The notes beneath the pieces are model-generated. The model ran no database searches. It was given only the letters and a program-made list of their open reading frames with translations, and was not told the origin of the DNA. Shown here piece after piece: positions 17,199 to 49,262 of a stretch of 64,000 bases of DNA (position 1 is the first letter of the stretch; each line of letters begins with the position of its first letter). Source of the stretch: Actinomycetes bacterium (lineage in GTDB: Bacteria; Actinomycetota; Actinomycetes; S36-B12; UBA5976); contig JBAXRV010000002.1 in assembly GCA_037131045.1 (NCBI GenBank), positions 6,838 through 70,837 on the forward strand, given 5' to 3'. A program made the translations under genes and the position numbers.

Positions 17199-17292
17199 TG
17201 GTCAATTCTAAGGTGAATGCCTGCAACGACGAACCTACTCAGAAAACGGTAGATTCGATAGGGGAAATAGCGACTTTTTGCTAGGAGGCCGT

Positions 17293-17631
17293 ATGGCGAA
17301 GTTCGCGTACTTAGGCGTCTTAGCGTTTTGTCTGTTGGGTACCGCATGGCTAGAGGTTCTCTTAAAGACTCGCGTATATCGTCGGGCACTACGTCTGGCC
17401 TGCTCGGTATTCCCAGTAGTAGCGATTTATACGGTCTGGGATGCCTATGCCATTGCTGCTGGTCACTGGACATTCGATGCGCGCTTTGTCACGGGGGTTA
17501 CCGTGATCGCAGATGTCCCATTTGATGAGATTTGCTTTTTTATTGCGATACCTATTTGTGCAATCTTGACTTTGGAAGCGGTGCGAAGTGCTCGCGGCTG
17601 GCTAGCAGGGGACGAAGGTGATCAGGCGTGA
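17293..17631 (+). CDS. crtYc: Lycopene cyclase domain protein, heterodimeric cyclase subunit CrtYc
   Basis: About 112-aa three-TM protein with VPFDEICFFIAIP (P-x-E/D-E cyclase motif). AGGAGG 5 nt upstream of ATG 17293 (the ORF-track TTG at 17278 is less likely). GTGA overlap with crtYd. Next to crtB. Confidence 0.7.
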   Translation: MAKFAYLGVLAFCLLGTAWLEVLLKTRVYRRALRLACSVFPVVAIYTVWDAYAIAAGHWTFDARFVTGVTVIADVPFDEICFFIAIPICAILTLEAVRSARGWLAGDEGDQA

Positions 17632-18026
17632 CGTATACGGCGTTGGCACTACTAGGTGTGCTGGTTGCAGTCGTGTGCGACGTTTTTATTGCGCGAACAA
17701 AGTTAGTAACTCGCCGAATCTTCTGGGTCTCTTACTGCATTATTTTCGTTTTTCAATTGCTGTCTAACGGCGCGTTAACCGGATTTCGAATTGTCCGTTA
17801 TAGCGATGCCGCAATTGTGGGTTCAGCAACACCAGTTGATCATGCTCCGCCAATGTTTGGTGATGGTCGACTAATGTTTGCCCCCTTTGAGGACATACTG
17901 TTTGGATTTTCCTTAGTGCTGTTCACTTTAACTATGTGGGTCTGGCTAGGAAGGCGCGGCATGCAACGAGAACCGCACGCCGGACCGCCACATGAAATCA
18001 TGCAACGAATTCTTAAACGCAAGTAG
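17628..18026 (+). CDS. crtYd: Lycopene cyclase domain protein, heterodimeric cyclase subunit CrtYd
   Basis: 132-aa TM protein with APFEDILFGFSLV (second P-x-E-D cyclase motif). Translationally coupled to crtYc. Confidence 0.7.
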   Translation: MTYTALALLGVLVAVVCDVFIARTKLVTRRIFWVSYCIIFVFQLLSNGALTGFRIVRYSDAAIVGSATPVDHAPPMFGDGRLMFAPFEDILFGFSLVLFTLTMWVWLGRRGMQREPHAGPPHEIMQRILKRK

Positions 18027-18055: not shown

Positions 18056-18964
18056 CTAGGACCAGAGTGCCCGTGCTCTGAAATATGCAGGTACAGCAAC
18101 GGAAAGTCGACGTTGAAGAGAAACTGTTGCGCGCTTATCAAAAATCTCATAATCAATCGCTTCCACAGCATCAACGATTCCGCAGTACAAGATGCGCGCA
18201 GTCTCAATGCATGGTCGGGCACTGGCACCTAGAAGCTCGATTCCTGGACGAGACTTTTCCTCTAAGTCACGTACTCGACTGATTTGAAATTTGAGCGCTT
18301 CCTTGACATCGGAAGTAGCCTTGCGCTTTTCCAAAGTTTCACGAGTGACATTAAATTGTGCCAGTTCGGTGAGTGGCAAGTAGACCCGTCCGCGGTCCAA
18401 ATCCTCTGATACATCGCGAATGAAGTTTGCGAGCTGGAATGCAACACCGAGTTGTGTCGCATGTTCGTAAGCAGCGCTTGACGTGGGCTCAAGAATTGGC
18501 ACCATCTGCAACCCAATAACAGCTGCCGAGCCGTACACGTACTCATATAAATCGTCGTAGGTGTTGTAGTGATTAACCGTCAAATCCATAGTCATGGAAT
18601 GCAAGAATGCCTCGAAGTGTGCTTGTGGGATATTCCAACGGCGAACCGTGTCTAAAACTGATCGACATACGGGGTCATCGGAAGTACCTGACTCGTATCG
18701 AGACAGAAAGTCCTGTCCCCAGGTATTTAATGCCTCCGCTTTTTCAACATCGGTCAGAGTGGAGGACAGATCATCAACAATTTCATCTGCGTAGCGCGCA
18801 AAGCCGTACAAGGCGTGCACAAATGGGCGTTTTTCGGGGGGTAGTAACAGGGTTGCTAAGTAGTAGGTTTTCCCGTGTTTCTTGTTCAGTTGGCGACACA
18901 ACTCATACGAGGCTCGTAGTTCTGGGTCATGAATGCCGGCAGCATCAAGGTCTCGGTTACTCAC
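18056..18964 (-). CDS. crtB: Phytoene synthase
   Basis: YLATLLLPPEKRPFVHALYGFARYADEIVDD (first Asp-rich motif) and ANFIRDVSEDLDRGRVYLP (second), 302 aa. Confidence 0.9.
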   Translation of the reverse strand: MSNRDLDAAGIHDPELRASYELCRQLNKKHGKTYYLATLLLPPEKRPFVHALYGFARYADEIVDDLSSTLTDVEKAEALNTWGQDFLSRYESGTSDDPVCRSVLDTVRRWNIPQAHFEAFLHSMTMDLTVNHYNTYDDLYEYVYGSAAVIGLQMVPILEPTSSAAYEHATQLGVAFQLANFIRDVSEDLDRGRVYLPLTELAQFNVTRETLEKRKATSDVKEALKFQISRVRDLEEKSRPGIELLGASARPCIETARILYCGIVDAVEAIDYEIFDKRATVSLQRRLSVAVPAYFRARALWS

Positions 18965-19138: not shown

Positions 19139-19579
19139 TTGAGTCAAGTTCGTTCCGGCCTTTTGTCAGCGTTACTTAAGGCGCACTACCTCAAAGGGGC
19201 ATTGCGATGGAAAATCGAGATCAGTGACGAGATTTTCGTGCAGGAGCTGGCCCAATCTGCTTGGCAAGGCTGGCTTCTTGATACAACAGGAGCTAAGTCT
19301 AAAGATGAAGTCATGGCGATGATGGCACACCAACTTGAGTTCACTGATTCATTTAGCGGAAGTTTTGAATCGTTTGAACAGTGCCTTGTTGGTCTCAATC
19401 ACAGTCAGCCAACTTTTCTTGTGTGGCGTGGCTGGGAACAATTTGTGCGCGAGAGTCGTGACGATGCTCGTATCATCGGTGACATCTTGGACACTGTCTC
19501 TATGCAGTGGCCCGGTACCGTGTTAGTTGTTGGAAGAACGGGTGACTTCCCTGACATCGGTGAACTCAGCCAAAGTTAA
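19139..19579 (+). CDS. Barstar-like (ribonuclease-inhibitor family) protein, orphan
   Basis: The C-terminal 90 aa align by eye with Bacillus barstar. KSKDEVMAMMAHQLEFTDSFSGSFESFEQCLVGL..PTFLVWRGWEQF matches [45 protein letters not shown]. TTG start with GAGG upstream. The N-terminal 40 aa and the true start are uncertain. Confidence 0.55.
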   Translation: MSQVRSGLLSALLKAHYLKGALRWKIEISDEIFVQELAQSAWQGWLLDTTGAKSKDEVMAMMAHQLEFTDSFSGSFESFEQCLVGLNHSQPTFLVWRGWEQFVRESRDDARIIGDILDTVSMQWPGTVLVVGRTGDFPDIGELSQS

Positions 19580-19588
19580 GGGCAACAA

Positions 19589-21121
19589 TCAACTCATTCC
19601 AAGCGGCGTGTTTTGATTCTGGGAAGTCAGTGCTCGAGGATCTAATCCAGTTATTCCTTCATCACCCAGAATGAGCTTTCGTTCGCGTGGTGATGCAAAC
19701 ATGGCAAGGCTCAAAGTTCCAGCAGCAAGGAGCATCGCAAGGCCATCGCTGAACTCGATGAAAGTGTCGGCAGTTGCGCTGGAGTTAGCAACGCCATGGA
19801 TGGTGAAAGCACAAATGACAAGCATCATGTAGCGCATTTGTTGATGTGACAGACCTGTCACTGCAAGGAGCGGAATTGACCACAGCAAGTACCACGGTTG
19901 CACCACTGGACCAAGAACTACAAGGGCCAAAAATGAGTAGGCAACCGAGCGAGTAGCAGTTCTTCGGGTCGGCCACATCACCAATGCGACTAAGACAACG
20001 CCGAGTGTCAGTGCACCCATGACGCGAAAGAATGCAATGGTGTGATCAATTTGGTTGGTTACGCCAAAGAGTTGCAACACCAAGCCAGAGAGCATGCCCA
20101 TCGCGGTCGTCGGTGAAATCCAACTGCGAACTGTGCCTGGACTCGACAGCGCATTTAACCACCCAAGGGGACCCACGTGTGCCACCCAAGATAGGGCGAT
20201 GAGTGCAATTCCAGCAACGCCACCAACTTTTGTAAAGCTTGCCATGCGTGCTCGAGTAGATGAGTGTGTGCTGGCCAAGAGTGCAACGAAGGGAAGTACA
20301 ACGATTGCTACCGGTTTAATACCGAGGGCTACGGTTGCTGCGCACGTAGCAAGAAAGAAACGCTTCTCGGATGCCCACAACAAAGCAAGGCACGACAGCG
20401 CAATCATCAACGACTCATTGTGAGCACCAACAACAAGATGCATAATCACCAGCGGATTCAAGACAGCCAACCACGATGCTGCGACAGGATTAATTCCGTG
20501 GTGGCGCGCGAGACGAGGCACACACCAGGCGATACCAATGATTCCTAGTATGGAAATTCCGCGAAATACGTATGCCGCCACAAGTGGGGAGTTTGGCACT
20601 AACTGTGCGACGCTCTTTTCGATCAAAAGAAATACTGGTCCGTAAGGAGTCTTTGCATCCGCCCACATCGGATCTACTCCACTGGTGAACCAACCGGGAA
20701 CCAGTGACACTCCTGACTCGTACGGATTGTGACCGTCTACCTGTAATCGTCCTTGCATGTAATACGAGTACACATCTCGACTGAACAATGGTGCCGAGAA
20801 CAGAAGTGGGCTGATCCAAATGGCCATAGTGACGTAGAGGGTGCGCAGTGACACAGTCTTTTCGTGAAGAGTGTCTACGCCAATTACTAACCATGACTGC
20901 AGAAGTAATGCAGCTCCAACAACAACAAAGGAGCGAGTAAGTGCTAGGCCCAAAGTTGAGGTCTGTAGATAGTCAACTATGGGAAGGCGTAAGACATTTG
21001 CGGATAGTGGAAACCAACCCACTCCGAGTGATCCCAGCGACATGAAGCAACTTCCCAAAAAACCAGGAAGCCCATAGAGCCCAAACCAGGCTCGAGCTGC
21101 TGCAAAATTTGGGGAGGACAT
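19589..21121 (-). CDS. mptA: GT-C polyprenol-phosphate-mannose-dependent alpha-(1->6)-mannosyltransferase, MptA/MptB family
   Basis: 510-aa polytopic protein with LFSRDVYSYYMQG, TPYGPVF and LNPLVIMHLVVGAHNESLM, motifs I associate with mycobacterial MptA/MptB. Lies next to the GGPP synthase as Rv2174 does next to idsA2 (Rv2173), from memory. Confidence 0.65.
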   Translation of the reverse strand: MSSPNFAAARAWFGLYGLPGFLGSCFMSLGSLGVGWFPLSANVLRLPIVDYLQTSTLGLALTRSFVVVGAALLLQSWLVIGVDTLHEKTVSLRTLYVTMAIWISPLLFSAPLFSRDVYSYYMQGRLQVDGHNPYESGVSLVPGWFTSGVDPMWADAKTPYGPVFLLIEKSVAQLVPNSPLVAAYVFRGISILGIIGIAWCVPRLARHHGINPVAASWLAVLNPLVIMHLVVGAHNESLMIALSCLALLWASEKRFFLATCAATVALGIKPVAIVVLPFVALLASTHSSTRARMASFTKVGGVAGIALIALSWVAHVGPLGWLNALSSPGTVRSWISPTTAMGMLSGLVLQLFGVTNQIDHTIAFFRVMGALTLGVVLVALVMWPTRRTATRSVAYSFLALVVLGPVVQPWYLLWSIPLLAVTGLSHQQMRYMMLVICAFTIHGVANSSATADTFIEFSDGLAMLLAAGTLSLAMFASPRERKLILGDEGITGLDPRALTSQNQNTPLGMS

Positions 21122-21139: not shown

Positions 21140-22639
21140 TTAGCGGATTGCGCGGGAACGATATGTTGGGTCAGGTCCTGTTATACGCTCAGCGGCTAGC
21201 CGACCAGAGATCAGCACCATGGGGACACCGACACCAGGTTGCGTGCCTGAACCAGTGAAGACAACATTTTGGCCCCAACGATTTCCAGGTCGAAATGGTC
21301 CAGTTTGGAAAAATGAATGCGCTGCTGCAAAGGGTGCGCCCCGTTCCATCCCGCGGTCGCTCCAGTCTTGCGGTGTGGTGATGTGCTCCACCTCGATGGC
21401 GTCACCAAAGCCATGGTAACCGCGACTTTCAAGAGTATTGATGACATGCTCTCGGTACTGCGGACCAATTTTGGCCCAGTCAATATCGGCATCAAGATTG
21501 GGAGTCGGGAACAGCACGTAGTAGATCTCTTTACCATCGGGGGCCAAACGTGAATCACCATGTGTGGGATTTGTGACTAACACGCTTGGATCTGTCATCA
21601 AAGTTTTGGTATTGATGAGCTCGTCAAATACGCCTCTCCAACTCTCACCAAAGTGAATGTTGTGGTGAGATATGTGGTCGTACTTAATGGACGAGCCAGC
21701 AAGCATGAGATAGCACGACGGTGAGTACTTAAGCCGATTGACGCTCCACTTAGAAACTCCAAGCAAGTCGCGATAGGCGACTGGCAAGTCTGGGTTCAGA
21801 ACAACAACATCAGCAGGAATGAATTCACCGTTTGTCGTTTCAACCCCAAGGGCTTTGTCGCCTTGTAGTCGCACGCGAGAAACCGTTGTGTTGTACTTAA
21901 AATTAACTCCATGATGAGCAGCAGCAGCTGCCATGGCAACGGGCACAGCATTCATCCCGCCTTCGGGGAAGAACACACCTGCGACTGAATCCATGTACGC
22001 GATGACTGCATAAATAGCAAGTGCGTCGTATGGAGATAAACCGGCATACATTGCCTGGAACGAAAACACTTTTTGAGTCCGTGGATCTTTAAGGTATTGC
22101 TCAACTTTGGGTGCGAGTTTCCTAAAACCACCAATAGCAACAAGTTTCGCTAAGTCACTAGACACGAGACTCAATGGGGAATCAATGTTGCGATCAATAA
22201 AATTACGCATTTCATATTTATAAAGATCAGAAACAAAATCGACGTATTTGAGGTAGCCACTCGCTTCGCGCGACCCAATGACGGTTTCAATTTCCGTGGC
22301 CATCTCTTGTGCATCCGAGTACACATTCAAAACGCTGCCATCTGGATGAAAGGACCGATACAACGGAGACACGGGCAAGAGCGTAAGCCAGTCGTTCATG
22401 TTTTCGCCTAAGCAGTCGAATGCATCGGCAATAAGGTCTGGCATCGTTAACACGGTTGGTCCATTGTCAAACTCAAACCCACGGTCACTGATGCGTCCTG
22501 CACGACCGCCTGGTCCTGGCTCACGCTCCACGACTGTGACATTACGTCCAGCTCCGGCTAGACGCATGGCAGCAGATAGACCAGCAAGTCCAGCGCCAAC
22601 GATCACCACATTGTCAGTAGGTCCTGAAATCCGTTTCAT
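21140..22639 (-). CDS. crtI: Phytoene desaturase
   Basis: VVIVGAGLAGLSAAMRLAGAGRNVTVVEREPGPGGRAG dinucleotide-binding fold, C-terminal VFTGSGTQPGVGVPMVLISG. Start set to ATG 22639 (MKRISGP...), 1 nt after the crtE stop. The ORF-track start at 22672 would overlap crtE. Confidence 0.85.
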   Translation of the reverse strand: MKRISGPTDNVVIVGAGLAGLSAAMRLAGAGRNVTVVEREPGPGGRAGRISDRGFEFDNGPTVLTMPDLIADAFDCLGENMNDWLTLLPVSPLYRSFHPDGSVLNVYSDAQEMATEIETVIGSREASGYLKYVDFVSDLYKYEMRNFIDRNIDSPLSLVSSDLAKLVAIGGFRKLAPKVEQYLKDPRTQKVFSFQAMYAGLSPYDALAIYAVIAYMDSVAGVFFPEGGMNAVPVAMAAAAAHHGVNFKYNTTVSRVRLQGDKALGVETTNGEFIPADVVVLNPDLPVAYRDLLGVSKWSVNRLKYSPSCYLMLAGSSIKYDHISHHNIHFGESWRGVFDELINTKTLMTDPSVLVTNPTHGDSRLAPDGKEIYYVLFPTPNLDADIDWAKIGPQYREHVINTLESRGYHGFGDAIEVEHITTPQDWSDRGMERGAPFAAAHSFFQTGPFRPGNRWGQNVVFTGSGTQPGVGVPMVLISGRLAAERITGPDPTYRSRAIR

Positions 22640-22640
22640 G

Positions 22641-23699
22641 TTAAGCGCTCCGCTGCGTTGCAACATATGCAAGTTCAGTCAGAGCCTCGCGTGCATGTGG
22701 GTCGATCGAATCTATTTGTAGCGCTTGTATTGCAGTGTGCGTCTGAGCAGTAATCATTGTCTCCACTTGTTCAAGGGCGCCCGTAGATGTGATCAAGGTT
22801 TGCAGCTCCTCGATCATTGGGGCAGTCATGGTCTTGGTCGTCATAAGTGAATCTATTTGTGCCGCCTTGTCATCACGTTGCATTGCCAGCGCAAGCAAAA
22901 CAGTTTGCTTACCTTCTCGCAAGTCATCGCCAGCAGGCTTGCCTGTAGTTTCGCTATCGCCGAAAACTCCAAGCACGTCATCACGTAGTTGGAAAGCTTC
23001 CCCAAGAGCCAGTCCGTACGCGCTAAGAGCTGCAATGTGCTCCGGCTTCGCATTCGCTATTGCGGCACCGATGTGAAGTGGTCGTTCGATTGTGTACTTG
23101 GCGCTCTTAAACCGAATCACATTTTGCGCACTTGCGACACTTGTGCCACGTCGAGCTTGTTCAAGTAGATCCAGGAACTGACCTGCCATAAGTTCAGTGC
23201 GCATGATGTCGTATACCGATTTGGCTCGGTTGAGCTCATCTTGGCTTAATCCACTAGTCAACAACATCTCATCAGCCCAGGACAGCGCCAAGTCTCCGAT
23301 GAGAATTGCCGCACCGTGACCGAAGCCGATACTTGATCCCTGCCAACCCGCTGTGTGGTGCATGGTTTCAAATTGTTTGTGAGTTGCCGGCTTTCCGCGT
23401 CGTGTGTCGCTGTCGTCCATTACATCATCGTGAATCAAGGCACACGCCTGTAAGAATTCAAGGGAGGCGCATGCTCGGACTAATTCGTCGCTGTCAGGCT
23501 GTCCCACACTTCGGTAGCCCCAGTATGCAAAAGCGGGTCTAAGTCTTTTGCCACCCTGGAGAAGTCCCGTGAGTGAGCTCACTAGTTCTACGGTGTCAGG
23601 GGATATCTGAGTGAGATAAGTCGTATGTGAAGTCACAAAGGTGTCTAATTCAGACTGAATGCGTTGCCGCAGGTTCGCCTCATCGAGTGGGTTGTTCAC
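22641..23699 (-). CDS. crtE: Geranylgeranyl diphosphate synthase (polyprenyl synthetase family)
   Basis: First Asp-rich motif LIHDDVMDDSDTRRG and second FQLRDDVLG. 352 aa. GTG start. Heads the crtE-crtI-mptA gene string. Confidence 0.85.
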   Translation of the reverse strand: MNNPLDEANLRQRIQSELDTFVTSHTTYLTQISPDTVELVSSLTGLLQGGKRLRPAFAYWGYRSVGQPDSDELVRACASLEFLQACALIHDDVMDDSDTRRGKPATHKQFETMHHTAGWQGSSIGFGHGAAILIGDLALSWADEMLLTSGLSQDELNRAKSVYDIMRTELMAGQFLDLLEQARRGTSVASAQNVIRFKSAKYTIERPLHIGAAIANAKPEHIAALSAYGLALGEAFQLRDDVLGVFGDSETTGKPAGDDLREGKQTVLLALAMQRDDKAAQIDSLMTTKTMTAPMIEELQTLITSTGALEQVETMITAQTHTAIQALQIDSIDPHAREALTELAYVATQRSA

Positions 23700-23756
23700 T
23701 TCTTTAGGTTATTGGCTCTCTGGCTTGCCTGCACATTGGCGTCGCTACGAATTACC

Positions 23757-24410
23757 ATGGGTTCTGTGTCCAACATGACCTTTGACGAGTACCTTCTCAG
23801 TTGGTCGCGCCTACATTCACAAGCGAAGGCCAGCGCTATTGTGCGGATGTGGCTTAGAGCTGCGTTTTGGTGTTCATCGCCATTTATCCGGTTTGGTCCG
23901 AATGCCGTCACATTTTTTGGCGCACTTGTGATGTTGTTGACCATCCCTTTGGCACATACTCGCCCCATATGTGCAGCAGTTGCAATGCCACTTATTGGCC
24001 TGATCGACAACATCGATGGAATCGTTGCTGTGCGCAGCCAAAGAGTGAGTCGCTATGGAGCCTTCTTGGATTCAGTTGTCGACCGTCTCGTTGACATCGC
24101 ATGTGTGGGATTAATTATTTCTTTTGGTGCTCCAATAACTCTGGCAATACTTGCCGTCATGACAACGTTGTTGCTTGAATATATACGCGCTAGGGCATCG
24201 TCATTAGGTGCAACCGACGTTGGCGTCATATCCATTGCCGAGAAACCGACTCGAGTCATCCTTACCTTCATGACCCTGCTGTGTATTGCGTTGTTCCCAT
24301 TTGATCAAGAGGTTGTGAGCACCATTTCGATTATTACGTGGAGCACAGTGGGCATGATTGGCATTTTTCAGGTGTGGCCTGCAATGCGGCGACAGTTACA
24401 AGCTCAGTAG
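23757..24410 (+). CDS. CDP-alcohol phosphatidyltransferase family protein (substrate unknown)
   Basis: IDNIDGIVAVRSQRVSRYGAFLDSVVDRLVD fits D-x2-D-G-x2-A-[R]-x8-G-x3-D-x3-D, except that the Arg position is Val with Arg one residue later. About six TM segments. Start moved to ATG 23757 (217 aa) because the ORF-track start at 23664 overlaps crtE. Confidence 0.75.
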   Translation: MGSVSNMTFDEYLLSWSRLHSQAKASAIVRMWLRAAFWCSSPFIRFGPNAVTFFGALVMLLTIPLAHTRPICAAVAMPLIGLIDNIDGIVAVRSQRVSRYGAFLDSVVDRLVDIACVGLIISFGAPITLAILAVMTTLLLEYIRARASSLGATDVGVISIAEKPTRVILTFMTLLCIALFPFDQEVVSTISIITWSTVGMIGIFQVWPAMRRQLQAQ

Positions 24411-24458
24411 TTACAAGCTCAGTAGTTACAAGCTCAGTAGTTACAAGCTCAGTGTTAC
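24394..24458. repeat. Perfect tandem repeat, 15-bp unit AGTTACAAGCTCAGT x 4 plus a partial fifth copy
   Basis: Read directly: copies at 24394-24408, 24409-24423, 24424-24438 and 24439-24453, then GTTAC. The first copy encodes the last codons and TAG stop of the CDP-alcohol transferase. The array ends 1 nt before the stop of the convergent CrtI-family gene (24459-24461). Confidence 0.9.
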
Positions 24459-25949
24459 TTAGGCTCGTCCAATCTTTTCCGCCACGATATTTGCTGATAG
24501 TGCAACAAGGGGTAAACCGCCGCCCGGATGAGCTGATCCTCCGACTAAATAGAGATTTCGAATGGCCGTCACATTGCTTGGGCGTAAGAATGCAGATCGC
24601 ATTCCGTTACTCGATGAACCATAGATTGAACCACCCGGAGCACCAGTTCGCGCTTGGAGGTCTGCAGGAGTGAATGTCGTTGACCAGGTGAGGCGATTGG
24701 CAATCTTCATTCCGCGCTGCGCAAGCCGTTCTTGAAGAAGTGCCCAATAGTTTGTCCGAAGTTCTTCCTCGGACCAATCGACACCATGCCCAGGGTCGTG
24801 GCGAGGCGCATTGACCAATACGAACCACGATTCACTGTTCGGTGGAGTCATGAGCGAATCCTGAGGGTTGCAGACATAGATTGTTGGATCCGCTACCGGT
24901 TGTTTAGTTTTTCCAAAGATGGAATCAAATTCGGCGTCGTAGTTTGCTGGGAACCACACGTTGTGATGCTCCAGGTCGGTAGACACGCCATCAAGAGCCA
25001 TCAAGCCAACAAACCCTGAAAGAGACGGAACATTTTTTGACAATTGTTTGCGAGCCCGAGCAGTGAGCTTACGCGAGTGTGAGTCCTGAAGTAGAGAGTT
25101 ATAGACCACACTTGCGTCTGCATTTGCAACCACAATGTCCGCCGCAAAGTCTCCCTGAGTTGTCGATACGGAAGTAACTGTAGAGCCACCATTAATGGTC
25201 GTAGCTGCAGTATTGAATTGAAAGGACACACCAAGCGACTGGCACCGTTCAAACAATGCAGCGCCGAGTTCGCGCACCCCACCAGCAACGTGATATGCGC
25301 CGAACGCTTGTTCGATGTAAGGAACTGTTGCAAGGGCAGCGGGTGCCTTACGCGGATCCGAACCCGTATATGTGGCATACCTATCAACAAGTGTGACAAG
25401 TCGTTGGTCGGAAAAATAGTGTTCTGCCAAACTCCGCAATGTTTGTGCAGGAGCAATTGTCCGCACATCATTGATGCGATAGGACAGTGCGAGCAAACTG
25501 CGAACACCGTTAAGTGGAGATTCGAGAAACGGTCCGCGGGTAGCTGCCCACATTTGTGCTGCGCGTTGCATGAATGCTTTCCATTCATCTGCACTCGCGC
25601 CACCCAATGTGTCACCAATTGCTTGAGTGCATGCTCCAATGCCAACACCGGGCATCTTCAGAACTGTTCCGTCGGCAAATTGATAACGAAATGCTGTCTC
25701 GAGGTCTACGAGGTTGACGCTGTCTTCAAGTGGTTTACCAGTTTTAAGAAACAAGTCGCGATAGACCGCGGGCAATGTAACAAGGCTTGGGCCGGTATCA
25801 AAGACATGGTCGCCGTGACGCACGGTCCCGAGTTTTCCACCCCAGGTGGCGCTGGATTCAATAACACGGACCGAATGACCCTTAACTGTAAGGCGCGCAG
25901 CACAGGCCATACCGCCCATACCTGCTCCGATGATTACTACCTTTGCCAC
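24459..25949 (-). CDS. CrtI-family FAD-dependent carotenoid desaturase/ketolase (CrtD- or CrtO-like)
   Basis: VVIIGAGMGGMACAARLTVKGHSVRVIESSATWGGKLG N-terminal FAD fold, C-terminal LYLVGGSAHPGGGLPLVALS. Second CrtI paralogue in the window. GTG start preceded by AAGGTGAAGG. Last gene of the tailoring operon. Confidence 0.7.
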   Translation of the reverse strand: MAKVVIIGAGMGGMACAARLTVKGHSVRVIESSATWGGKLGTVRHGDHVFDTGPSLVTLPAVYRDLFLKTGKPLEDSVNLVDLETAFRYQFADGTVLKMPGVGIGACTQAIGDTLGGASADEWKAFMQRAAQMWAATRGPFLESPLNGVRSLLALSYRINDVRTIAPAQTLRSLAEHYFSDQRLVTLVDRYATYTGSDPRKAPAALATVPYIEQAFGAYHVAGGVRELGAALFERCQSLGVSFQFNTAATTINGGSTVTSVSTTQGDFAADIVVANADASVVYNSLLQDSHSRKLTARARKQLSKNVPSLSGFVGLMALDGVSTDLEHHNVWFPANYDAEFDSIFGKTKQPVADPTIYVCNPQDSLMTPPNSESWFVLVNAPRHDPGHGVDWSEEELRTNYWALLQERLAQRGMKIANRLTWSTTFTPADLQARTGAPGGSIYGSSSNGMRSAFLRPSNVTAIRNLYLVGGSAHPGGGLPLVALSANIVAEKIGRA

Positions 25950-25996
25950 ACCTTCACCTTAAGACAGGTCGCTAGTCGGCGGGCACATGACGGGTG

Positions 25997-27094
25997 TCAC
26001 GACGTGTGCAAGACCCGACCTTTCCAGGTATTGGTTCCGCGAGCATGTCGGATCCACGACACCGCATTGAGAAATACAAAGCTGGAAATGGAAAGTGGGT
26101 GAAGTAATGCATCCGGAAAAACTCTGTGCTGAAACTGGCGCGCACACACCAAGCGCCCGACAACGCCAGCGCTGTATCCCACAAGAGCCAAAGCACGCTG
26201 ACCCGAGGCAAACCCATAAAGCGGCGCAACGTATATGAACACCAGCGACAGATTGATAAATATTGTTCCTATCAAACCGTTAAACGCAGACCACAGACTT
26301 TTCGCATAGCCAGAAATTAATTGGGAATTCGTTTCGTACATGTTGCACGTCGCAAGTGTGGTGCCATCTACGACCGTGGCTTTAAATCCGTTTTTACTGA
26401 GGTTTCGCGACAAGGCGATGTCTTCTAACACTTCATTGCGCACACCTTCGTGCCCGCCGCTGCGCACATAGGCATCGCGCTTCACTGCAATGAATTGGCC
26501 ATTTCCAACAGCCATACTGGGGCGTTGCGTTGCGAGTGAAATTTTGAGTGGAACAGTCGTCAGCCAGGACCACTGCAAAAGTGGTTGCACGAGACGGGCC
26601 AGAAACGTACTTGCAATCTGGCGAGGATACGGGCAAATCAAATCGAGACTCTTGTCCTGGAGAGTTGCAACCGCCGAACTTACAGCATGCGGACTGAGCA
26701 CCACATCGGCATCAATGAAAACCAGAAATTCACTTGTGACTGCGTTGGAAAGTTGATGGCAGGCGTATGGCTTTCCTAGCCACCCTGACGGTGGTTCGCC
26801 CGCACCGTCAATCACTGACAAGCGTGAATCGTGAAATGTGCTCAGGATTTGTGCCGTGGAATCAGTGGAATTGTCGTTGAGCACAACAATCTCTAAATGA
26901 GGAATGTCTTTTTGCGCTAATGCTGCGGTGACACACGATGCAATATGTCGTTCTTCATTACGGGCAGGAATCAGTACAGCGATTGATTGGAGAATCTCTC
27001 GAGGGTGACACGCAATCAAATAGCGTCGATTGAACCAGCTGTGAATAGTGAGTGCCCAGGCGAGTAGGCATGAGACTGCGAGCAGCGCGGTCAT
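25997..27094 (-). CDS. Membrane-anchored family 2 glycosyltransferase, carotenoid glycosyltransferase-like (CruC/CrtQ type)
   Basis: N-terminal TM segment, then VLIPARNEERHI, LEIVVLNDNSTD, FLVFIDADVVL (DxD) and C-terminal TM helices. Start set to ATG 27094 (MTALLAV...), which overlaps the cruF stop as TAATG. The 44-codon ORF-track extension lies inside cruF. Confidence 0.75.
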   Translation of the reverse strand: MTALLAVSCLLAWALTIHSWFNRRYLIACHPREILQSIAVLIPARNEERHIASCVTAALAQKDIPHLEIVVLNDNSTDSTAQILSTFHDSRLSVIDGAGEPPSGWLGKPYACHQLSNAVTSEFLVFIDADVVLSPHAVSSAVATLQDKSLDLICPYPRQIASTFLARLVQPLLQWSWLTTVPLKISLATQRPSMAVGNGQFIAVKRDAYVRSGGHEGVRNEVLEDIALSRNLSKNGFKATVVDGTTLATCNMYETNSQLISGYAKSLWSAFNGLIGTIFINLSLVFIYVAPLYGFASGQRALALVGYSAGVVGRLVCARQFQHRVFPDALLHPLSISSFVFLNAVSWIRHARGTNTWKGRVLHTS

Positions 27095-27864
27095 TACACC
27101 TGTCGCATCCTCATAATGACTGGAATCATCACGGCGCCCATTCCGATTAGCCCGGTGACAGCAACGGCTGGTTGATCTAAAAATGGTGCGAATGGAACAA
27201 TGTTCGCTAAGAAGCTGCCTAGCCAAACCCAGATCAGCATGGCAAAGGGGGCAAAATCTGCCAGCGTCAGTGGAGTCGGTTCCACAGTCTTATTGATTGC
27301 GTGCGAGATGAGGAAAGCGACAAAAAACCAAGAAAGATAGTTGGACACTGGGATTCCATTAATTGAGTCTGTGACCGAACGCCAGAACCAATACACCTCG
27401 TGCGTCATTTGAGGGTCAAGGTAAAGGTCCCATGCCGTCATGAGAGCGGCAGTTATCGCGCTAGAAGAAATCGGATTAGTACTGATTGAATGCCCGACGA
27501 GTAGGCAGGGGTACATCATCATGAACCATGCCAATGGAATCAAGAGTGGCACTCCGAACAGCTGCATGCCTAGTTGGTCGGTGTATTCGTAGTGCCCAAA
27601 GATGATGTGGGTATGTAGACCAAGAAATTCAGCAACAAAACTTGTGATTACGGTGGTCGTAAATACTCGATTGGCAAAGTCCGAACCGCGAGTCAAAGTT
27701 GCATGAACCAATGACATTGCTGCAAATGAAATCACTGCGGCAATTGTGATGTGCGCTCTGGTTGCATCGTGAACCAGGGTCCAGACAATATTGAGTAAAA
27801 CCGTGATCAGCCCGAGCAGCAATGGCAAAGGTCGGTTGTCAACTAAAATCTGCTTTACATTCAC
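27094..27864 (-). CDS. cruF: Carotenoid biosynthesis membrane protein, DUF422/CruF-like (carotenoid 1,2-hydratase family)
   Basis: FVAEFLGLHTHIIFGHYEYTDQLGMQLFGVPLLIPLAWF and WDLYLDPQMTHEVYWFWRS...NGIPVSNYLSWF match the two conserved blocks of the carotenoid-synthesis DUF422 family as I remember them. GTG start overlaps the upstream stop (GTGA). Confidence 0.75.
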   Translation of the reverse strand: MNVKQILVDNRPLPLLLGLITVLLNIVWTLVHDATRAHITIAAVISFAAMSLVHATLTRGSDFANRVFTTTVITSFVAEFLGLHTHIIFGHYEYTDQLGMQLFGVPLLIPLAWFMMMYPCLLVGHSISTNPISSSAITAALMTAWDLYLDPQMTHEVYWFWRSVTDSINGIPVSNYLSWFFVAFLISHAINKTVEPTPLTLADFAPFAMLIWVWLGSFLANIVPFAPFLDQPAVAVTGLIGMGAVMIPVIMRMRQV

Positions 27865-28580
27865 AGTGGGTCAGTCCAATTCTGGTTTTCAAAAGTGCCT
27901 GACATTGACACTACTTCAAAACGGGCAAAGAGTTCCTCGGCGTACCAACCTGTTTCATGAGTTCTTGAAATCACTTTTTGGTGCGGGCTCTGTCGTGTTG
28001 CAAATTGCGTAATGCTGTCGTTGTCACGCCAGACACTGAACGTGCCTTGCAGTCCTACAGGCGCTTCGCCAATACCGATGCTCATCAGTAACCCGTCAGT
28101 CGAGTTCAGATCTGCACTCACGGCAGGAACACTTCGCCAAAATTCACGCCACCAACGCACTTTGATTGACGCACGAGTAAGTGCCGCCACGCGAGTTTCG
28201 ACCTTTCGTGGCGTGGGATCACCAAACGGTTTCTGCGATGCCCAGGTTCCTTTACTAGAAATCGGTAGCAAAACGATTCGGGCATGCTCTGTGGCAATGG
28301 CGTTCCAGCTTTGCACCACATCGTGAGAAGCAAAATTGTCTGCGGAGTCTTGGGTATTCCACACTGTCAGAATTGCCCAATGATGTAAGTCAGCATCTCG
28401 CATCGTGAACGTGCGACCGGAACCAGTTCCTAACAATTTCCAAAATTTGAGCTCGGGTATGCGTCGCAAATTCATACGATGCAATCCCATTCGGAAGAGC
28501 GCGTTGGGTATTTTGCTCGTTGGCACATGAAAAATATCAAGCGCTACATGATGTGTGCTCATGGCTCTAGTCTGTCTCAC
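27861..28580 (-). CDS. crtA: CrtA-like carotenoid oxygenase (spheroidene monooxygenase family)
   Basis: Blocks FWKLLGTGSGRTFT, WAILTVW, ALTRASIKVRWWREFW, GIGEAPVGLQGTFSVW and WYAEELFARFEVV parallel the Rhodobacter CrtA sequence as I recall it. First gene of the tailoring operon. The start is GTG 28580 or ATG 28562. Confidence 0.7.
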   Translation of the reverse strand: MRQTRAMSTHHVALDIFHVPTSKIPNALFRMGLHRMNLRRIPELKFWKLLGTGSGRTFTMRDADLHHWAILTVWNTQDSADNFASHDVVQSWNAIATEHARIVLLPISSKGTWASQKPFGDPTPRKVETRVAALTRASIKVRWWREFWRSVPAVSADLNSTDGLLMSIGIGEAPVGLQGTFSVWRDNDSITQFATRQSPHQKVISRTHETGWYAEELFARFEVVSMSGTFENQNWTDPL

Positions 28581-28666
28581 TGGCTGTGCACTGTGCAGGA
28601 TGACGCGTTAGGTGTGATCGACAAGGGAAATGAAAGTTACTGCGAACCCGCGCAGAAATAAGGTGG

Positions 28667-29173
28667 CTAGTCGCCTGCAATGACCGCTGTACCTTGAGTG
28701 AGCGAGACTAGGTCTGCAAATGTCGTGCGATAAACAACATGGGTGTGACCTGCGGCAGCCCACACAACGTCGTAGTCAGCCAACGCGACATCAACAAAAG
28801 TGAGCGGCGAATACGGCTGACCATTGTGTATCCACCCAGTTGGGCTGACGCCTCCGATGGCAAAGCCACTCCACTCCCGCACGAAGTCTGCATCGGCGCG
28901 ACCAAATGTGGGAAGCGCCGCCGCCTCTTGAACTAGTGAGGTGTTAACCCGGTGTCGCCCAGATGTCACAACAAGCACAGGAACAATGCCATCGCCCAAG
29001 TCAACTGTGAAAACAATTGACGAGGCGATTTGTCCCACTTCAACGTCGAGTCCGGCAGCGGCCTCAACAGCTGTGCGTGCTGTGTCGCTTAGTGTGCGAA
29101 CCTCAGGATTAATTCCGGCATGCGCAAAGGCTTGCTTTACTCGGGCAACCGAGGCGTGTTCAGTTGTGCTCAT
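28667..29173 (-). CDS. ybaK: YbaK/EbsC-type aminoacyl-tRNA editing domain protein
   Basis: 168 aa. Has SGFAIGGVSPTGW (the GGvsPxG motif) and the overall pattern of the YbaK/ProX deacylase domain. Confidence 0.65.
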   Translation of the reverse strand: MSTTEHASVARVKQAFAHAGINPEVRTLSDTARTAVEAAAGLDVEVGQIASSIVFTVDLGDGIVPVLVVTSGRHRVNTSLVQEAAALPTFGRADADFVREWSGFAIGGVSPTGWIHNGQPYSPLTFVDVALADYDVVWAAAGHTHVVYRTTFADLVSLTQGTAVIAGD

Positions 29174-29179
29174 CAGCGG

Positions 29180-30526
29180 TTAAGCAGTTGCTTCCTTGAA
29201 GGCATGTTCGATAATTGTTAACGCATCATCGAGTAGGTGTTCAGGCATGACGAGTGGTGGCAGGAAGCGCAACACGTTTCCATAAGTTCCTGCTGTAAGT
29301 ACTAAGACACCTTCGGCGTGACACAACTTCGCCACCTTGCTGGTCATGTCTGCATCAGGCTCATCTGTTCCGGGCTTAACAATTTCAACGGCAATCATTG
29401 CACCGCGGCCACGAATGTTTCCTATGACTCCAGCGTCAGCTGCAATTTTTTCAAGACGTGGCAGCATGATGGTTTCGATGTGACGAGCCTTTGCATTTAA
29501 GTCTTCTTGTTCCATAATCGAAATGGACGCTAATGCTGCCGCGCATGCGATTGGATTGCCGCCATAGGTTCCCCCAAGGCCGCCCGCATGAACTGAATCC
29601 ATAATTTCTGCACGACCAGTGACAGCAGCTAGTGGTAAGCCGCCTGCGATGCCCTTAGCGGTAGTAATAAGGTCAGGAACAATTCCTTCGTGTTCGCTGG
29701 CAAACCATTTTCCGGTGCGACAGAATCCCGTCTGCACTTCGTCAGCTACAAAGACGATTCCGTTTGCCTTTGCGAAAGCCGCCAAAGCAGGGATGAAGCC
29801 TTCGGCAGGAACAACGAAACCACCTTCGCCTTGGATCGGTTCAATAACAAGTGCGGCCACATTGCCCGCACCAATTTCTTTTTCGATACGGCTAATTGTT
29901 CGTTGTGCTGCTTCAGGGCCGGTGAGCCCATCGTGGAATGGATAGGACATTGGCAGGCGGTACACCTCAGAGGCAAACGGACCAAAGCCTTGCTTGTAAG
30001 GCATGTTCTTACCAGTCATTGCCATTGTCAGATTTGTACGTCCGTGGTACCCATGTTCAAAAACGACGACTGCTTGACGCTTTGTGTAGGTACGTGCAAT
30101 CTTGACTGCATTCTCGACTGCTTCAGCACCCGTATTAAATAGTGCAGAACGCTTCTCGTGATCGCCTGGGGTCAGACGGTTAAGTGCTTCACATACTTCG
30201 ATGTAGTTCTCGTATTGAGTGACCATAAAGCAGGTGTGAGTGAATTTCTCCACCTGGGCAGTGACCGCGTCGATAACTGCCTGAGCCGCGTTACCAACTG
30301 ATGTGACGGCAATACCTGAACCCATGTCGATCAGTGAGTTACCGTCAATGTCGACAACAACACCTCCGGCAGCGCGATCAATAAAGATAGGTAGGGTAGC
30401 GCCGATACCGTTGCTGATTGCGGCCTTACGACGATCCTGAAGTGCCATGGATTTGGGGCCAGGAATCGCAGTAACAAGGCGTCGTTCCTGTGGCAAGCCG
30501 TTAACAAGATTTTCTGTAGCAGTCAT
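29180..30526 (-). CDS. gabT: 4-aminobutyrate aminotransferase (class III PLP aminotransferase)
   Basis: AIPGPKS...RRKAA N-terminus, FVADEVQTGFCRTGKWFA, TTAKGIAGGLP (PLP lysine). Start set to ATG 30526 (MTATENL...) rather than the ORF-track GTG at 30562. Confidence 0.8.
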   Translation of the reverse strand: MTATENLVNGLPQERRLVTAIPGPKSMALQDRRKAAISNGIGATLPIFIDRAAGGVVVDIDGNSLIDMGSGIAVTSVGNAAQAVIDAVTAQVEKFTHTCFMVTQYENYIEVCEALNRLTPGDHEKRSALFNTGAEAVENAVKIARTYTKRQAVVVFEHGYHGRTNLTMAMTGKNMPYKQGFGPFASEVYRLPMSYPFHDGLTGPEAAQRTISRIEKEIGAGNVAALVIEPIQGEGGFVVPAEGFIPALAAFAKANGIVFVADEVQTGFCRTGKWFASEHEGIVPDLITTAKGIAGGLPLAAVTGRAEIMDSVHAGGLGGTYGGNPIACAAALASISIMEQEDLNAKARHIETIMLPRLEKIAADAGVIGNIRGRGAMIAVEIVKPGTDEPDADMTSKVAKLCHAEGVLVLTAGTYGNVLRFLPPLVMPEHLLDDALTIIEHAFKEATA

Positions 30527-35798: not shown

Positions 35799-36638
35799 AT
35801 GACGCACGACGTTCGTACGATTGAGGCCCGTCATTTACCGCAGCTGGTAGACATTATTAAAAGCAACCCAGTGCGTCACTGTTATGTTGCGTCACGAGTG
35901 CTGTCTCAATCAAAATCATTTCTTCGCAGCGCACATAGTGATGTCTACGGCTTCTTTTCTGGAGATGAACTCATCTCTGCAATGTTGGTCGGAGCAAACC
36001 TAGTTCCTATCAATACGACAGCCGAATCTCGTGCCGCATTTGCCAAAGTGCTAGCGCGACAAGGTCGACGTTGCTCATCGATTGTGGGTCCCGACAGTGA
36101 GGTCCTTGATCTATGGTCGACTCTCGAGTCTGCTTGGGGCAAAGCACGTGAAGTGCGCTCACGTCAACCTGTCATGGCGCTATCACAACGCTCCCTAGTC
36201 GCATCGGATGACTTGGTTCGATACGCGCATAAGTCTGATCTCGATGTGTTGCTGCCAGCGTGTATTGACATGTTCACGAATGAAGTGGGAATCTCACCGG
36301 TTGCTTTTGGAACTGGAACGATGTACCGCAATCGGATTGCCGAAATTATCGCGGCGCGACATTCTTTTGTGCGTATCGATGATGGACAGATCATATTTAA
36401 GGCAGAGATTGGGTCCGTTGGGGCAGGGGTAGCCCAGATACAAGGGGTGTGGGTTCACCCCAACTGGCGTGGCAAGGGGCTTTCTGTGCCAGGGATGGCA
36501 GCTGTTACTAAGTACGTTCTTGACGACATAGCTGGCACCGCTTCGCTGTACGTCAACGATTTCAACACTGTGGCAATTGCTGCCTATAAGTCTGTGGGAT
36601 ATGAACAGGTAGACACGTTCGCGACCGTGCTGTTCTAG
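35799..36638 (+). CDS. GNAT family N-acetyltransferase
   Basis: C-terminal half has QIQGVWVHPNWRGKGL (acetyl-CoA binding R-x-x-G-x-G/A). Follows ispG as Rv2867c does in M. tuberculosis, from memory. Confidence 0.6.
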   Translation: MTHDVRTIEARHLPQLVDIIKSNPVRHCYVASRVLSQSKSFLRSAHSDVYGFFSGDELISAMLVGANLVPINTTAESRAAFAKVLARQGRRCSSIVGPDSEVLDLWSTLESAWGKAREVRSRQPVMALSQRSLVASDDLVRYAHKSDLDVLLPACIDMFTNEVGISPVAFGTGTMYRNRIAEIIAARHSFVRIDDGQIIFKAEIGSVGAGVAQIQGVWVHPNWRGKGLSVPGMAAVTKYVLDDIAGTASLYVNDFNTVAIAAYKSVGYEQVDTFATVLF

Positions 36639-49064: not shown

Positions 49065-49262
49065 TTATCACGTCATGGCCAGCCGAACGTCGGTTGACCA
49101 TTCGGGGTAACCGCGTTCTATCGCATTTGATGGTTCGGTCCTCGGTAGTGATGTTCGAAAATTTCTTTCGCGCATCTCGATCGAAGATCGTACATCGCAG
49201 CTGACTCGAGGTCAGCACCGATTACGTTCGCGGCTTACCCCCTTATCAAATAGGGAGTACCT
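49065..49262 (+). promoter_or_regulatory. Structured rpsO-pnp intergenic leader (candidate Actino-pnp-type autoregulatory RNA)
   Basis: 198-nt non-coding gap in an otherwise gap-free region. Hairpins seen by eye: GGCCAGCCGA-ACG-TCGGTTGACC (49077-49099, one mismatch) and GCTGAC-TCGAG-GTCAGC (49200-49216). GGGAG Shine-Dalgarno at 49253-49257. Covariance-model identity was not tested. Confidence 0.45.

Follow-up and report, generated by a model that had tools for sequence, protein, structure and literature searches.

In acI actinobacteria (Nanopelagicales), the "actinoxanthin" operon has the order acyltransferase-crtA-cruF-cruG-crtD and lies upstream of crtE-crtI-crtB. Metatranscript support for it spans the intergenic regions, and its product is a prediction only (Dwulit-Smith et al. 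2018, bioRxiv 10.1101/367102). The flavobacterial myxol pathway of Flavobacterium P99-3 and Nonlabens spongiae employs CruF, CrtD and CrtA-OH, and reconstitution in E. coli has shown that these enzymes turn gamma-carotene into deoxymyxol (PMC11855829). In purple bacteria, residues H194, T128, T173, and R214 of Cereibacter sphaeroides CrtA have been probed by mutagenesis or modelling and found to be important (PMC13488962). Salinispora makes sioxanthin, which is modified at one end only and whose psi-end carries a 1'-O-glucosyl group, a free 2'-hydroxyl, and a 3',4' double bond, with no keto group. The sioxanthin gene region of Salinispora and the Micromonosporaceae was reportedly described by Richter, Hughes and Moore in 2015, and we take it to be strop_3244-3251 in Salinispora.

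The window analysed here, the whole stretch of 64,000 nt from an uncultured, freshwater-type Actinomycetes bacterium, contains four consecutive minus-strand ORFs, as seen in the ORF list and by reading the minus strand (Table 1). The TGA stop of the crtA-like gene overlaps the GTG start of cruF (GTGA, 27864-27861), the TAA stop of cruF overlaps the ATG start of the GT2 gene (TAATG, 27096-27092), and a gap of exactly 47 nt separates the TGA stop of the GT2 gene (25999-25997) from the GTG start of the crtD-like gene. All three junctions agree with those originally claimed. Taken as a whole, we consider it probable that the four genes constitute a single operon with translational coupling. Its products would decorate the psi (open) end of a C40 carotenoid, supplied by crtE-crtI-crtB and crtYc/Yd nearby, in an inferred five-step route. 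Public gene calls start the crtA-like gene at ATG 28562 (233 aa) instead of GTG 28580, and its homology begins at about residue 11 with either start. For the crtD-like gene, public calls use ATG at 25919 (486 aa). Judged from the sequence, GTG 25949 is preferable, because the match to the CrtD profile begins at residue 4, the GxGxxG dinucleotide-binding motif is present in the longer form only, and AAGGTGAAGG precedes the start. Metagenome contigs from the same population carry 2, 3 or 4 copies of the tandem repeat that follows the operon.

Table 1. Features of the carotenoid locus in window coordinates
Feature	Position	Strand	Remarks
crtYc (17278-17631) + crtYd (17628-18026), split lycopene beta-cyclase	17278..18026	+	TIGR03462 61.6 + 30.4 bits; convergent with crtB
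crtB phytoene synthase	18056..18964	-	PF00494 233 bits
crtI phytoene desaturase	21140..22672	-	TIGR02734 488 bits; likely start ATG at 22639, 499 aa (gene call)
crtE / idsA-type GGPP synthase	22641..23699	-	PF00348 178 bits; first gene of separate lycopene unit
15-nt tandem repeat, 4.4 copies	24394..24458		TRF score 123; spacer between convergent crtD and CDP-alcohol transferase genes
CrtD-like CrtI-family flavoenzyme, predicted 1'-hydroxycarotenoid 3',4'-desaturase	24459..25949	-	496 aa; TIGR02734
Membrane GT2, predicted carotenoid glycosyltransferase	25997..27094	-	365 aa from ATG at 27094; PF00535
CruF-family membrane protein, predicted carotenoid 1',2'-hydratase	27094..27864	-	256 aa; PF04240
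CrtA-like heme monooxygenase, predicted carotenoid C-2' hydroxylase	27861..28580	-	239 aa from GTG; NF045923 match

The four family assignments of the original prediction (CrtA, CruF/DUF422, membrane GT2, and CrtI family) hold in profile searches. The CrtA-like protein matches the CrtA model NF045923 over positions 4-225 of 226 with 192 bits (E 7e-57), under the equivalog cut-off of 300. The CruF-family protein scores 108.6 bits on PF04240 Caroten_synth (GA 25) and 90.6 bits on TIGR03460 CruF, under that model's cut-off. The GT2 protein matches PF00535 (71.7 bits) and PF13641 (67 bits), carries a DAD motif within FIDADV, and has hydrophobic segments at the N- and C-terminus. The CrtD-like protein exceeds the cut-off of TIGR02734 crtI_fam (302.7 bits vs 238). 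All four proteins score under NCBIfam equivalog cut-offs, so isofunctional orthology is not demonstrated for any of them. The authors of the acI study raised a CrtO-type function for the orthologue of the CrtD-like protein (bioRxiv 10.1101/367102); a ring 4-ketolase of this type would lead to a salinixanthin-like product with a 4-keto ring, a possible keto-carotenoid antenna. We regard this as very improbable, since the protein scores 342 bits (NF045637, cut-off 580) and 275 bits on CrtD models against 41.7 bits on CrtO, and the Salinispora orthologue comes from a genome whose carotenoid is unsaturated at 3',4' and lacks a keto group.

The CrtA-like protein is homologous to purple-bacterial CrtA (Cereibacter sphaeroides; PMC13488962) over its full length and shares with it the heme-ligand His, both substrate-proximal Thr, the propionate-binding Arg, and a tandem ABM barrel fold, here modelled. 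Residues T135, R136, T180, H200, and R220 are invariant in comparison with Cereibacter and Roseobacter CrtA; the heme ligand H200 together with T135, T180, and R220 is shared with the Cereibacter ovatus and Roseobacter litoralis proteins, and these four correspond to C. sphaeroides H194, T128, T173, and R214, respectively. The AF2 model (pLDDT 93) shows the tandem ABM fold, and its PDB neighbours (3MCS, aldoxime dehydratase, and coproheme decarboxylase) are those reported for CrtA. However, identity to purple-bacterial CrtA is just 33-35%, the proline-rich C-terminal tail is missing, the gene does not lie in a photosynthesis gene cluster, and the expected product is an alcohol instead of a ketone. 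Ketolase activity at C-2', known from spheroidenone synthesis and here yielding a 2'-keto carotenoid, seems quite improbable. The top named model of the protein is indeed the Rhodobacter-type spheroidene monooxygenase, CrtA is able to carry out two successive hydroxylations to a ketone, and R. sphaeroides CrtA has both ketolase and hydroxylase activities. Nevertheless, an NJ tree without support values places the window protein in an actinobacterial clade together with its Micromonospora and Salinispora counterparts, separate from Rhodobacterales CrtA, and the sole solved product from this clade, sioxanthin, retains its 2'-OH. Moreover, we know of no natural precedent for a 1'-O-glycosylated tertiary carbon beside a 2'-ketone, which also counts against a ketolase. 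In the same tree, the protein falls in another clade than low-GC representatives, putatively Bacteroidota.

The operon is orthologous to and syntenic with its acI and Salinispora counterparts. It shares with the acI operon the order of the four genes, all on the same strand and upstream of the lycopene genes, as well as a crtB convergent with crtYd/Yc and a YbaK-like gene upstream. Its CrtA-like protein is 41-58% identical to those of Nanopelagicales, Nanopelagicaceae, and Planktophila loci. The window differs in lacking the acI alpha/beta-hydrolase "acyltransferase", a gene present in just 10 of the best 80 of at least 597 loci, in carrying inserted MptB and barstar-like genes that separate crtI from crtB, in its GC content of ~51%, and in its overlapping genes, with crtA and cruF lying 15-130 nt apart in relatives. 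The ~18.8-kb Salinispora locus encodes YbaK-like, CrtA-like, GNAT, CruF, GT2, and CrtD proteins, an opposite-strand CDP-OH transferase, MTHFR, CrtE, and PknB. The window has the same series of CrtA-like, CruF, GT2, CrtD, opposite-strand CDP-alcohol transferase, and then CrtE, within the same backbone of a YbaK-like gene upstream and a PknB-type kinase beyond. Identities between the syntenic proteins range from 36% to 50% (CrtA-like, 44%; CruF, 36%; GT2, 42% over 357 aa; CrtD-like, 42%; CrtE, 50%). In contrast to the window, a GNAT gene separates crtA-like from cruF in Salinispora, whose crtI, crtB, and cyclase genes are not part of this locus. The carotenoid genes of the window lie in conserved housekeeping synteny on a conserved chromosomal backbone, not in the "island" originally described.

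Profile searches located crtE, crtI, crtB, and crtYc/Yd where they had been predicted; the PF18916 matches of crtYc/Yd sit just under its cut-off. The split cyclase could yield mainly beta-carotene, a point against the proposed route. The ring of sioxanthin is aromatic (phi) and needs a CrtU-type enzyme. Only a beta-cyclase and no CrtU-like ORF is found in the window, so a beta-ring would be expected. No ketolase, ring hydroxylase, rhodopsin or blh was detected among all window ORFs of at least 150 aa. The earlier claim that ring ketolases and ring hydroxylases are missing therefore stands, while its extension to acyltransferases does not: a PlsC-type gene (11831-12562) and a GNAT gene (35799-36638) are present, both far from the operon and amid housekeeping genes. 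The product is probably not acylated, because the window encodes neither a homologue of the alpha/beta-hydrolase that belongs to the acI operon nor the GNAT of the Micromonosporaceae.

In the proposed route, cyclisation of lycopene at one end would give gamma-carotene, and CruF would add water across C-1',2' to form 1'-hydroxy-gamma-carotene. The CrtD-like flavoenzyme would introduce the 3',4' double bond (1'-hydroxytorulene), the heme-dependent CrtA-like monooxygenase would hydroxylate C-2' to deoxymyxol (plectaniaxanthin), and the membrane GT2 would add a hexose, most likely at O-1', where sioxanthin carries its glucose. A glycoside of deoxymyxol (plectaniaxanthin), equivalent to sioxanthin with a beta-ring, is the likeliest product; we infer all of the individual reactions, the site and identity of the sugar, and the formation of a single ring. 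Each of the four enzymes would account for one step in the psi-end chemistry of sioxanthin, and the Salinispora gene-to-step assignment is deduced from synteny and product structure. The flavobacterial pathway has three enzyme families in common with the window, acting on gamma-carotene in the order hydratase, desaturase, 2'-hydroxylase. Its cluster as listed has no glycosyltransferase, a single-chain CrtY, and a CrtZ adding a 3-OH, whereas the window has a GT2, a split CrtYc/Yd, and no CrtZ. The acI prediction, Salinispora synteny and sioxanthin, and the flavobacterial reconstitution in E. coli provide three independent lines of support for the predicted 1'-hydration, 3',4'-desaturation, 2'-oxygenation, and glycosylation of a monocyclic carotenoid.

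It is rather unlikely that the sugar is instead attached to the 2'-hydroxyl, as in CruG-made cyanobacterial myxol 2'-glycosides. The acI paper calls the GT2 orthologue CruG (bioRxiv 10.1101/367102), and among named NCBIfam models the 96.5 bits of the window protein on CruG, a 2'-O-glycosyltransferase, are second to HpnB alone (100.7 bits). Both scores are far under the cut-offs, which is 600 for CruG, and the 42% identical Salinispora GT2 belongs with a 1'-O-glucoside with free 2'-OH. Modification of both lycopene ends, giving an acyclic symmetric diglycoside of the oscillol-diglycoside type and leaving the cyclase for beta-carotene/retinal only, is improbable. In E. coli, CruF alone does produce both mono- and dihydroxylycopene from lycopene (PMC11855829), and the cyclase genes form a separate unit in opposite orientation. 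On co-expression of cyclase and CruF, however, monocyclic 1'-hydroxy-gamma-carotene predominates (PMC11855829), and sioxanthin is modified at a single end.

Among species-representative genomes, at least 597 stretches carry a CrtA-like gene. The labels of the best 80 of these loci are almost all Actinomycetota, apart from three that look like mis-binned MAGs. Where these 80 loci had enough flank, the crtA-like, CruF, GT2, and CrtD genes were colinear in 45 of 54 actinobacterial species genomes, in genera including Micromonospora, Frankia, Gordonia, and Salinispora, and several of the 80 also show split-cyclase matches. The combination of a CrtA-family oxygenase with a split cyclase, originally regarded as no textbook actinobacterial pathway, is thus not unusual in Actinobacteria. 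The pathway is supported but not new: described in lake acI bacteria, present in sioxanthin-making Salinispora, and common across the phylum, the gene set is an ordinary and already known one.

Profile searches placed the products of the first two genes of the operon inside the CrtA and CruF families, in agreement with the original prediction. Gene 1 (crtA-like) matched the NCBIfam CrtA model NF045923 with 192.4 bits (E 6.8e-57), aligning residues 12-232 to positions 4-225 of the 226-position model. This is full-length homology to the CrtA profile but falls below the equivalog cut-off of 300, so the protein is a member of the CrtA family and is not callable as the same enzyme. Gene 2 (cruF) scored 108.6 bits against PF04240 (Caroten_synth/CruF; GA 25), with residues 42-223 covering positions 5-189 of 209, and remained under all CruF equivalog cut-offs (TIGR03460, 90.6 vs 154.7; NF045693, 57.4 vs 400; NF041333, 42.6 vs 300). 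Gene 3 encodes a GT2 protein with a GT-A domain (PF00535, 71.7 bits; PF13641, 67.2 bits), and its translation contains the sequence FIDADV (DAD, the DXD motif) and hydrophobic N- and C-termini that flank the domain as membrane segments. Its top named models, HpnB (100.7 bits) and CruG (96.5 bits), both score far below their cut-offs; CruG, a 2'-O-glycosyltransferase model with an equivalog cut-off of 600, is slightly outscored by HpnB. Gene 4 belongs to the CrtI family (TIGR02734 crtI_fam, 302.7 bits; cut-off 238.1). It scored 342 bits against the CrtD model NF045637 (cut-off 580), 275 against NF042421 (cut-off 500), and 41.7 against CrtO, and thus appears CrtD-like rather than CrtO-like, though under the equivalog thresholds. 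Pfam lacks a model for the CrtA family, the sole Pfam match of gene 1 being a sub-threshold DUF3291, and public records call the actinobacterial CrtA-like proteins just "monooxygenase" or "heme-degrading monooxygenase HmoA". For these two reasons the carotenoid step is missed by automated annotation.

The close coupling of the 4 genes was confirmed on the minus strand. The TGA stop of gene 1 shares bases with the GTG start of gene 2 in a GTGA overlap (27864-27861), the TAA stop of gene 2 runs into the ATG start of gene 3 in a TAATG overlap (27096-27092), and 47 nt separate the TGA of gene 3 (25999-25997) from the GTG of gene 4 (25949). In public gene predictions for metagenome contigs of 100% identity, gene 1 begins with ATG 28562 (233 aa) and gene 4 with ATG 25919 (486 aa). 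For gene 4, GTG 25949 is the better start, because the CrtD profile alignment begins at residue 4 of the long form, the GxGxxG motif is present only in that form, and AAGGTGAAGG precedes this codon. A consensus scan for promoters and terminators across 24200-29300 returned counts at chance level (4 vs 4.3 expected; 5 vs 5.8) and therefore carries no information on transcription units.

Features of the operon, of its surroundings in the window, and of the compared Micromonosporaceae loci
Feature	Position	Strand	Remarks
Gene 1, crtA-like	28580-27861	-	ORF listing
Gene 2, cruF	27864-27094	-	ORF listing
Gene 3, GT2	27094-25997	-	ORF listing
Gene 4, crtD-like	25949-24459	-	ORF listing
15-nt tandem repeat AGTTACAAGCTCAGT, 4.4 copies	24394-24458		fills the convergent spacer between crtD and the CDP-alcohol transferase gene
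CDP-alcohol phosphatidyltransferase-family gene, divergent	23664-24410	+	211 aa in the public call, which begins at about 23775
MptB/GT87-family membrane mannosyltransferase gene	19589-21121	-	
Barstar-like ORF (PF01337)	19139-19579	+	barnase gene not beside it
PlsC-type acyltransferase-family gene	11831-12562		distant from the operon, among housekeeping genes
DUF4081-GNAT	35799-36638		distant from the operon, among housekeeping genes
Actino-pnp RNA motif (RF01688, 58.1 bits)	49134-49192	+	just 5' of the gene for polynucleotide phosphorylase (49263-51470)
GNAT acetyltransferase gene between crtA-like and cruF, Micromonospora	L086 10495-11466		
GNAT acetyltransferase gene between crtA-like and cruF, Salinispora	L088 9756-10325		

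We then compared the CrtA-like protein with the characterized CrtA of C. sphaeroides. In that enzyme, H194 is the axial heme ligand and the H194A mutant is inactive and without heme; the substrate site is lined by T128 and T173, most activity being lost in the double mutant; and R214 is assigned to heme-propionate binding from modelling (2026 study, PMC13488962). By spacing, these residues correspond to H200, T135, T180, and R220 of the window protein. In an alignment of 68 representatives of the CrtA family, H200, T135, R136, and T180 are invariant and R220 is nearly so. All 5 residues are invariant in a 5-sequence alignment that took in the annotated CrtA of Roseobacter litoralis, from a photosynthesis gene cluster, and a Cereibacter ovatus-cluster protein (P0226). 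For R188 and R202 the window protein has no arginine at exactly the corresponding position; arginines lie at His-4 and His+6. The AlphaFold2 model, built on the alignment (pLDDT 93.1, pTM 0.90), shows a duplicated ferredoxin-like beta-alpha-beta unit forming a tandem ABM barrel. Foldseek against the PDB retrieved 3MCS (E 8e-12), aldoxime dehydratase (TMq about 0.6), and coproheme decarboxylase, and the published model of C. sphaeroides CrtA likewise has 3MCS, aldoxime dehydratase, and coproheme decarboxylase as neighbours. Because residues, fold, and structural neighbours all match, the window protein is predicted to be a genuine heme-type monooxygenase of the CrtA family. In a neighbour-joining tree, which carries no support values, the window, acI-like, Salinispora, and Micromonospora proteins form one large clade, apart from Rhodobacterales CrtA and from low-GC representatives that probably come from Bacteroidota. 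This placement favours a Salinispora-like hydroxylase over a ketolase, short of proof.

The operon has its counterpart in the sioxanthin producers. A search with a Micromonospora CrtA-like query led to a Salinispora pacifica protein whose locus (L088) contains, in order, YbaK-like, CrtA-like, GNAT, CruF, GT2, and CrtD genes, then CDP-OH transferase and MTHFR genes (both on the opposite strand), CrtE, an Rv2175c-like gene, and a PknB-type kinase gene. We take this region to be the "terp2" sub-cluster of Richter et al. 2015. Between the window and this locus, protein identities are 44% for CrtA, 36% for CruF, 42% for GT2, 42% for CrtD, and 50% for CrtE; the same order of crtA-like, CruF, GT2, and CrtD genes occurs in the Micromonospora loci. 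The window thus shares with the sioxanthin module a syntenic set of CrtA-like, CruF, GT2, and CrtD genes with detectable orthology. It differs in the GNAT gene between crtA-like and cruF, a Micromonosporaceae feature, whereas in the window those two genes overlap by 4 nt. No CrtU-like ORF for aromatic-ring chemistry was found among window ORFs of at least 150 aa. Making the psi-end of sioxanthin takes a single hydration, desaturation at 3',4', hydroxylation at 2', and glucosylation, so that each of the 4 enzymes would carry out one step. A paper citing Richter et al. 2015 confirms a 1',2'-hydratase in the pathway, and according to antiSMASH the sioxanthin cluster is present in nearly all Micromonospora. 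In one metagenomic protein (P0183, 405 aa), a CrtA-like domain is fused to a GNAT domain. This fusion and the GNAT neighbourhood hint at a functional link, perhaps acylation of the sugar or of a hydroxyl group, which has no counterpart in the window.

A second counterpart is the operon described in all acI clades, in which acyltransferase-crtA-cruF-cruG-crtD lies directly upstream of crtE-crtI-crtB and metatranscript reads span the intergenic regions (Dwulit-Smith et al. 2018). The carotenoid predicted from it, actinoxanthin, is derived from gamma-carotene and is desaturated, dihydroxylated, glycosylated, and acylated (Dwulit-Smith et al. 2018). The pathway reading in the original prediction is supported, and the same inference had already been published for acI. 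Our literature search found no experimental follow-up on the acI carotenoid after Dwulit-Smith et al. 2018. We compared the gene order with that description and with loci from Nanopelagicales, Nanopelagicaceae, and Planktophila (L007-L009, L023, L075, L081, L082). The window shares the series crtA-cruF-GT2-crtD, with these four genes on one strand and crtE-crtI-crtB downstream of them, and crtYc/Yd is convergent on crtB. It lacks the alpha/beta-hydrolase "acyltransferase" found upstream of crtA in acI. In L081 this gene (2037-2825) encodes a protein of 262 aa, alpha/beta-hydrolase-like by a GxSxG-type motif in the translation, and its stop overlaps the crtA start. A tblastn search of the window with the L081 protein gave nothing better than E 0.43, and in the window 86 nt separate the YbaK-like gene from crtA. 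A hydrolase of this type stands upstream of crtA in 10 of the best 80 of at least 597 loci.

These numbers come from scanning GTDB at one genome per species, which gave at least 597 CrtA-like matches; at 50% clustering the family has 924 representatives. Labels among the best 80 matches are almost entirely Actinomycetota and include Nanopelagicales, Kineosporiaceae, Geodermatophilaceae, Frankia, Micromonospora, Gordonia, Nocardioides, Quadrisphaera, Kineococcus, and Acidimicrobiia, while 3 odd labels (Bifidobacterium twice, Spirochaetaceae once) look like mis-binned MAGs. With the window's proteins as tblastn queries, CruF, GT2, and CrtD followed the CrtA-like gene in order and on the same strand in 45 of the 54 loci that have 9 kb or more of flanking sequence, and a YbaK-like gene was found upstream in 28 of 64. 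The combination of a crtA-like gene with a split cyclase, which had been considered unusual for Actinobacteria, is not a rarity in the phylum, several of these loci also giving split-cyclase hits, and the operon is orthologous to an already described, widespread actinobacterial module. The closest species representatives among the best 80 (L007-L009) show 56-58% identity in CrtA, 81% in CrtI, and 77-80% in GabT. L008 and L009 carry the label Ca. Nanopelagicales; L007 bears the label Bifidobacterium breve and looks like a mis-binned MAG. A protein identical to the window CrtA-like protein occurs in a MAG that NCBI labels "Actinomycetes bacterium", as well as in several contigs from ENA and Logan; the ERZ273000xx samples hold related contigs. 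The host is therefore an uncultured bacterium related to acI.

The genes around the operon belong to the core chromosome: qcrA/C, ctaE, trpD, GT4 and GT87 glycosyltransferase genes, an acyl-CoA ligase gene, pfk, aroG, a PASTA kinase gene, dxr, rseP, ispG, proS, nusA, infB, truB, ribF, pnp, dapB/A, thyX, and the genes for RNase J and ftsK. GC content is flat at about 0.50-0.52, so "island" was the wrong word for this region. Horizontal acquisition as an island was rejected on the flat GC together with core-gene flanks in an order shared with Salinispora. The CDP-alcohol transferase gene runs towards crtD and away from crtE, and its top model is archaetidylinositol-phosphate synthase (99.5 bits, below the cut-off). 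It was weighed as a fifth pathway gene, since in 33 of 44 actinobacterial loci, Salinispora included, an opposite-strand homologue follows CrtD at no more than 3 kb. Adjacency drops to 2 of 8 loci without backbone markers, which argues against that role and for a conserved backbone gene; its position is probably backbone synteny. The stop codon of this + strand gene falls in the first AGTTACAAGCTCAGT repeat unit. In metagenome contigs of this population the repeat has 2, 3, or 4 copies, and an A/T variant also occurs; this variation in copy number identifies it as a population-level VNTR. Between crtI and crtB, the barstar-like and MptB/GT87 genes break the usual crtE-crtI-crtB run; an MptB-family gene also follows crtI in L007 and L008. 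An Rfam scan of the window matched Actino-pnp only.

Taken together, the genes suggest the following route. GGPP would be converted to phytoene and lycopene by the products of crtE, crtB, and crtI; lycopene would be cyclised once by CrtYc/Yd, hydrated by CruF, desaturated by CrtD, 2'-hydroxylated by the CrtA-like enzyme, and finally glycosylated by the GT2. In E. coli, CruF, CrtD, and CrtA-OH of Nonlabens spongiae convert gamma-carotene step by step to 1'-hydroxy-gamma-carotene, 1'-hydroxytorulene, and deoxymyxol (PMC11855829). Work in E. coli has also shown competition between a cyclase and CruF for the ends of lycopene, which makes a monocyclic product plausible here. Orthology with Salinispora makes O-1' the most likely site of glycosylation. 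The original prediction had found no acyltransferase, ring ketolase, or ring hydroxylase in the window. For the ketolase and hydroxylase this stands among ORFs of at least 150 aa, where profiles detected no rhodopsin, blh, CrtW/O, CrtZ, or CrtU; for acyltransferases it does not, since PlsC-type and DUF4081-GNAT genes are present. With neither the acI alpha/beta-hydrolase nor the Micromonosporaceae GNAT in the window, an unacylated glycoside is expected. We know of no isolation of deoxymyxol glucoside, the beta-ring analogue of sioxanthin, from any actinobacterium. That the host uses such a non-acylated, non-ketolated deoxymyxol (plectaniaxanthin) glucoside as the antenna of an actinorhodopsin encoded elsewhere in its genome is a long shot; if true, it would extend carotenoid-antenna phototrophy to a hydroxy-glycoside without a 4-keto group.

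The operon shows no new enzyme family, pathway logic, or surprising taxonomic spread, and it adds one more uncultured lineage to those with the conserved actinobacterial carotenoid-glycoside module. Compact, with 4 genes and no acyltransferase, it is convenient for heterologous expression. The shared synteny joins the "actinoxanthin" predicted for acI to Salinispora sioxanthin, whose structure is solved, and this link gives a concrete structure to seek, deoxymyxol 1'-glucoside.
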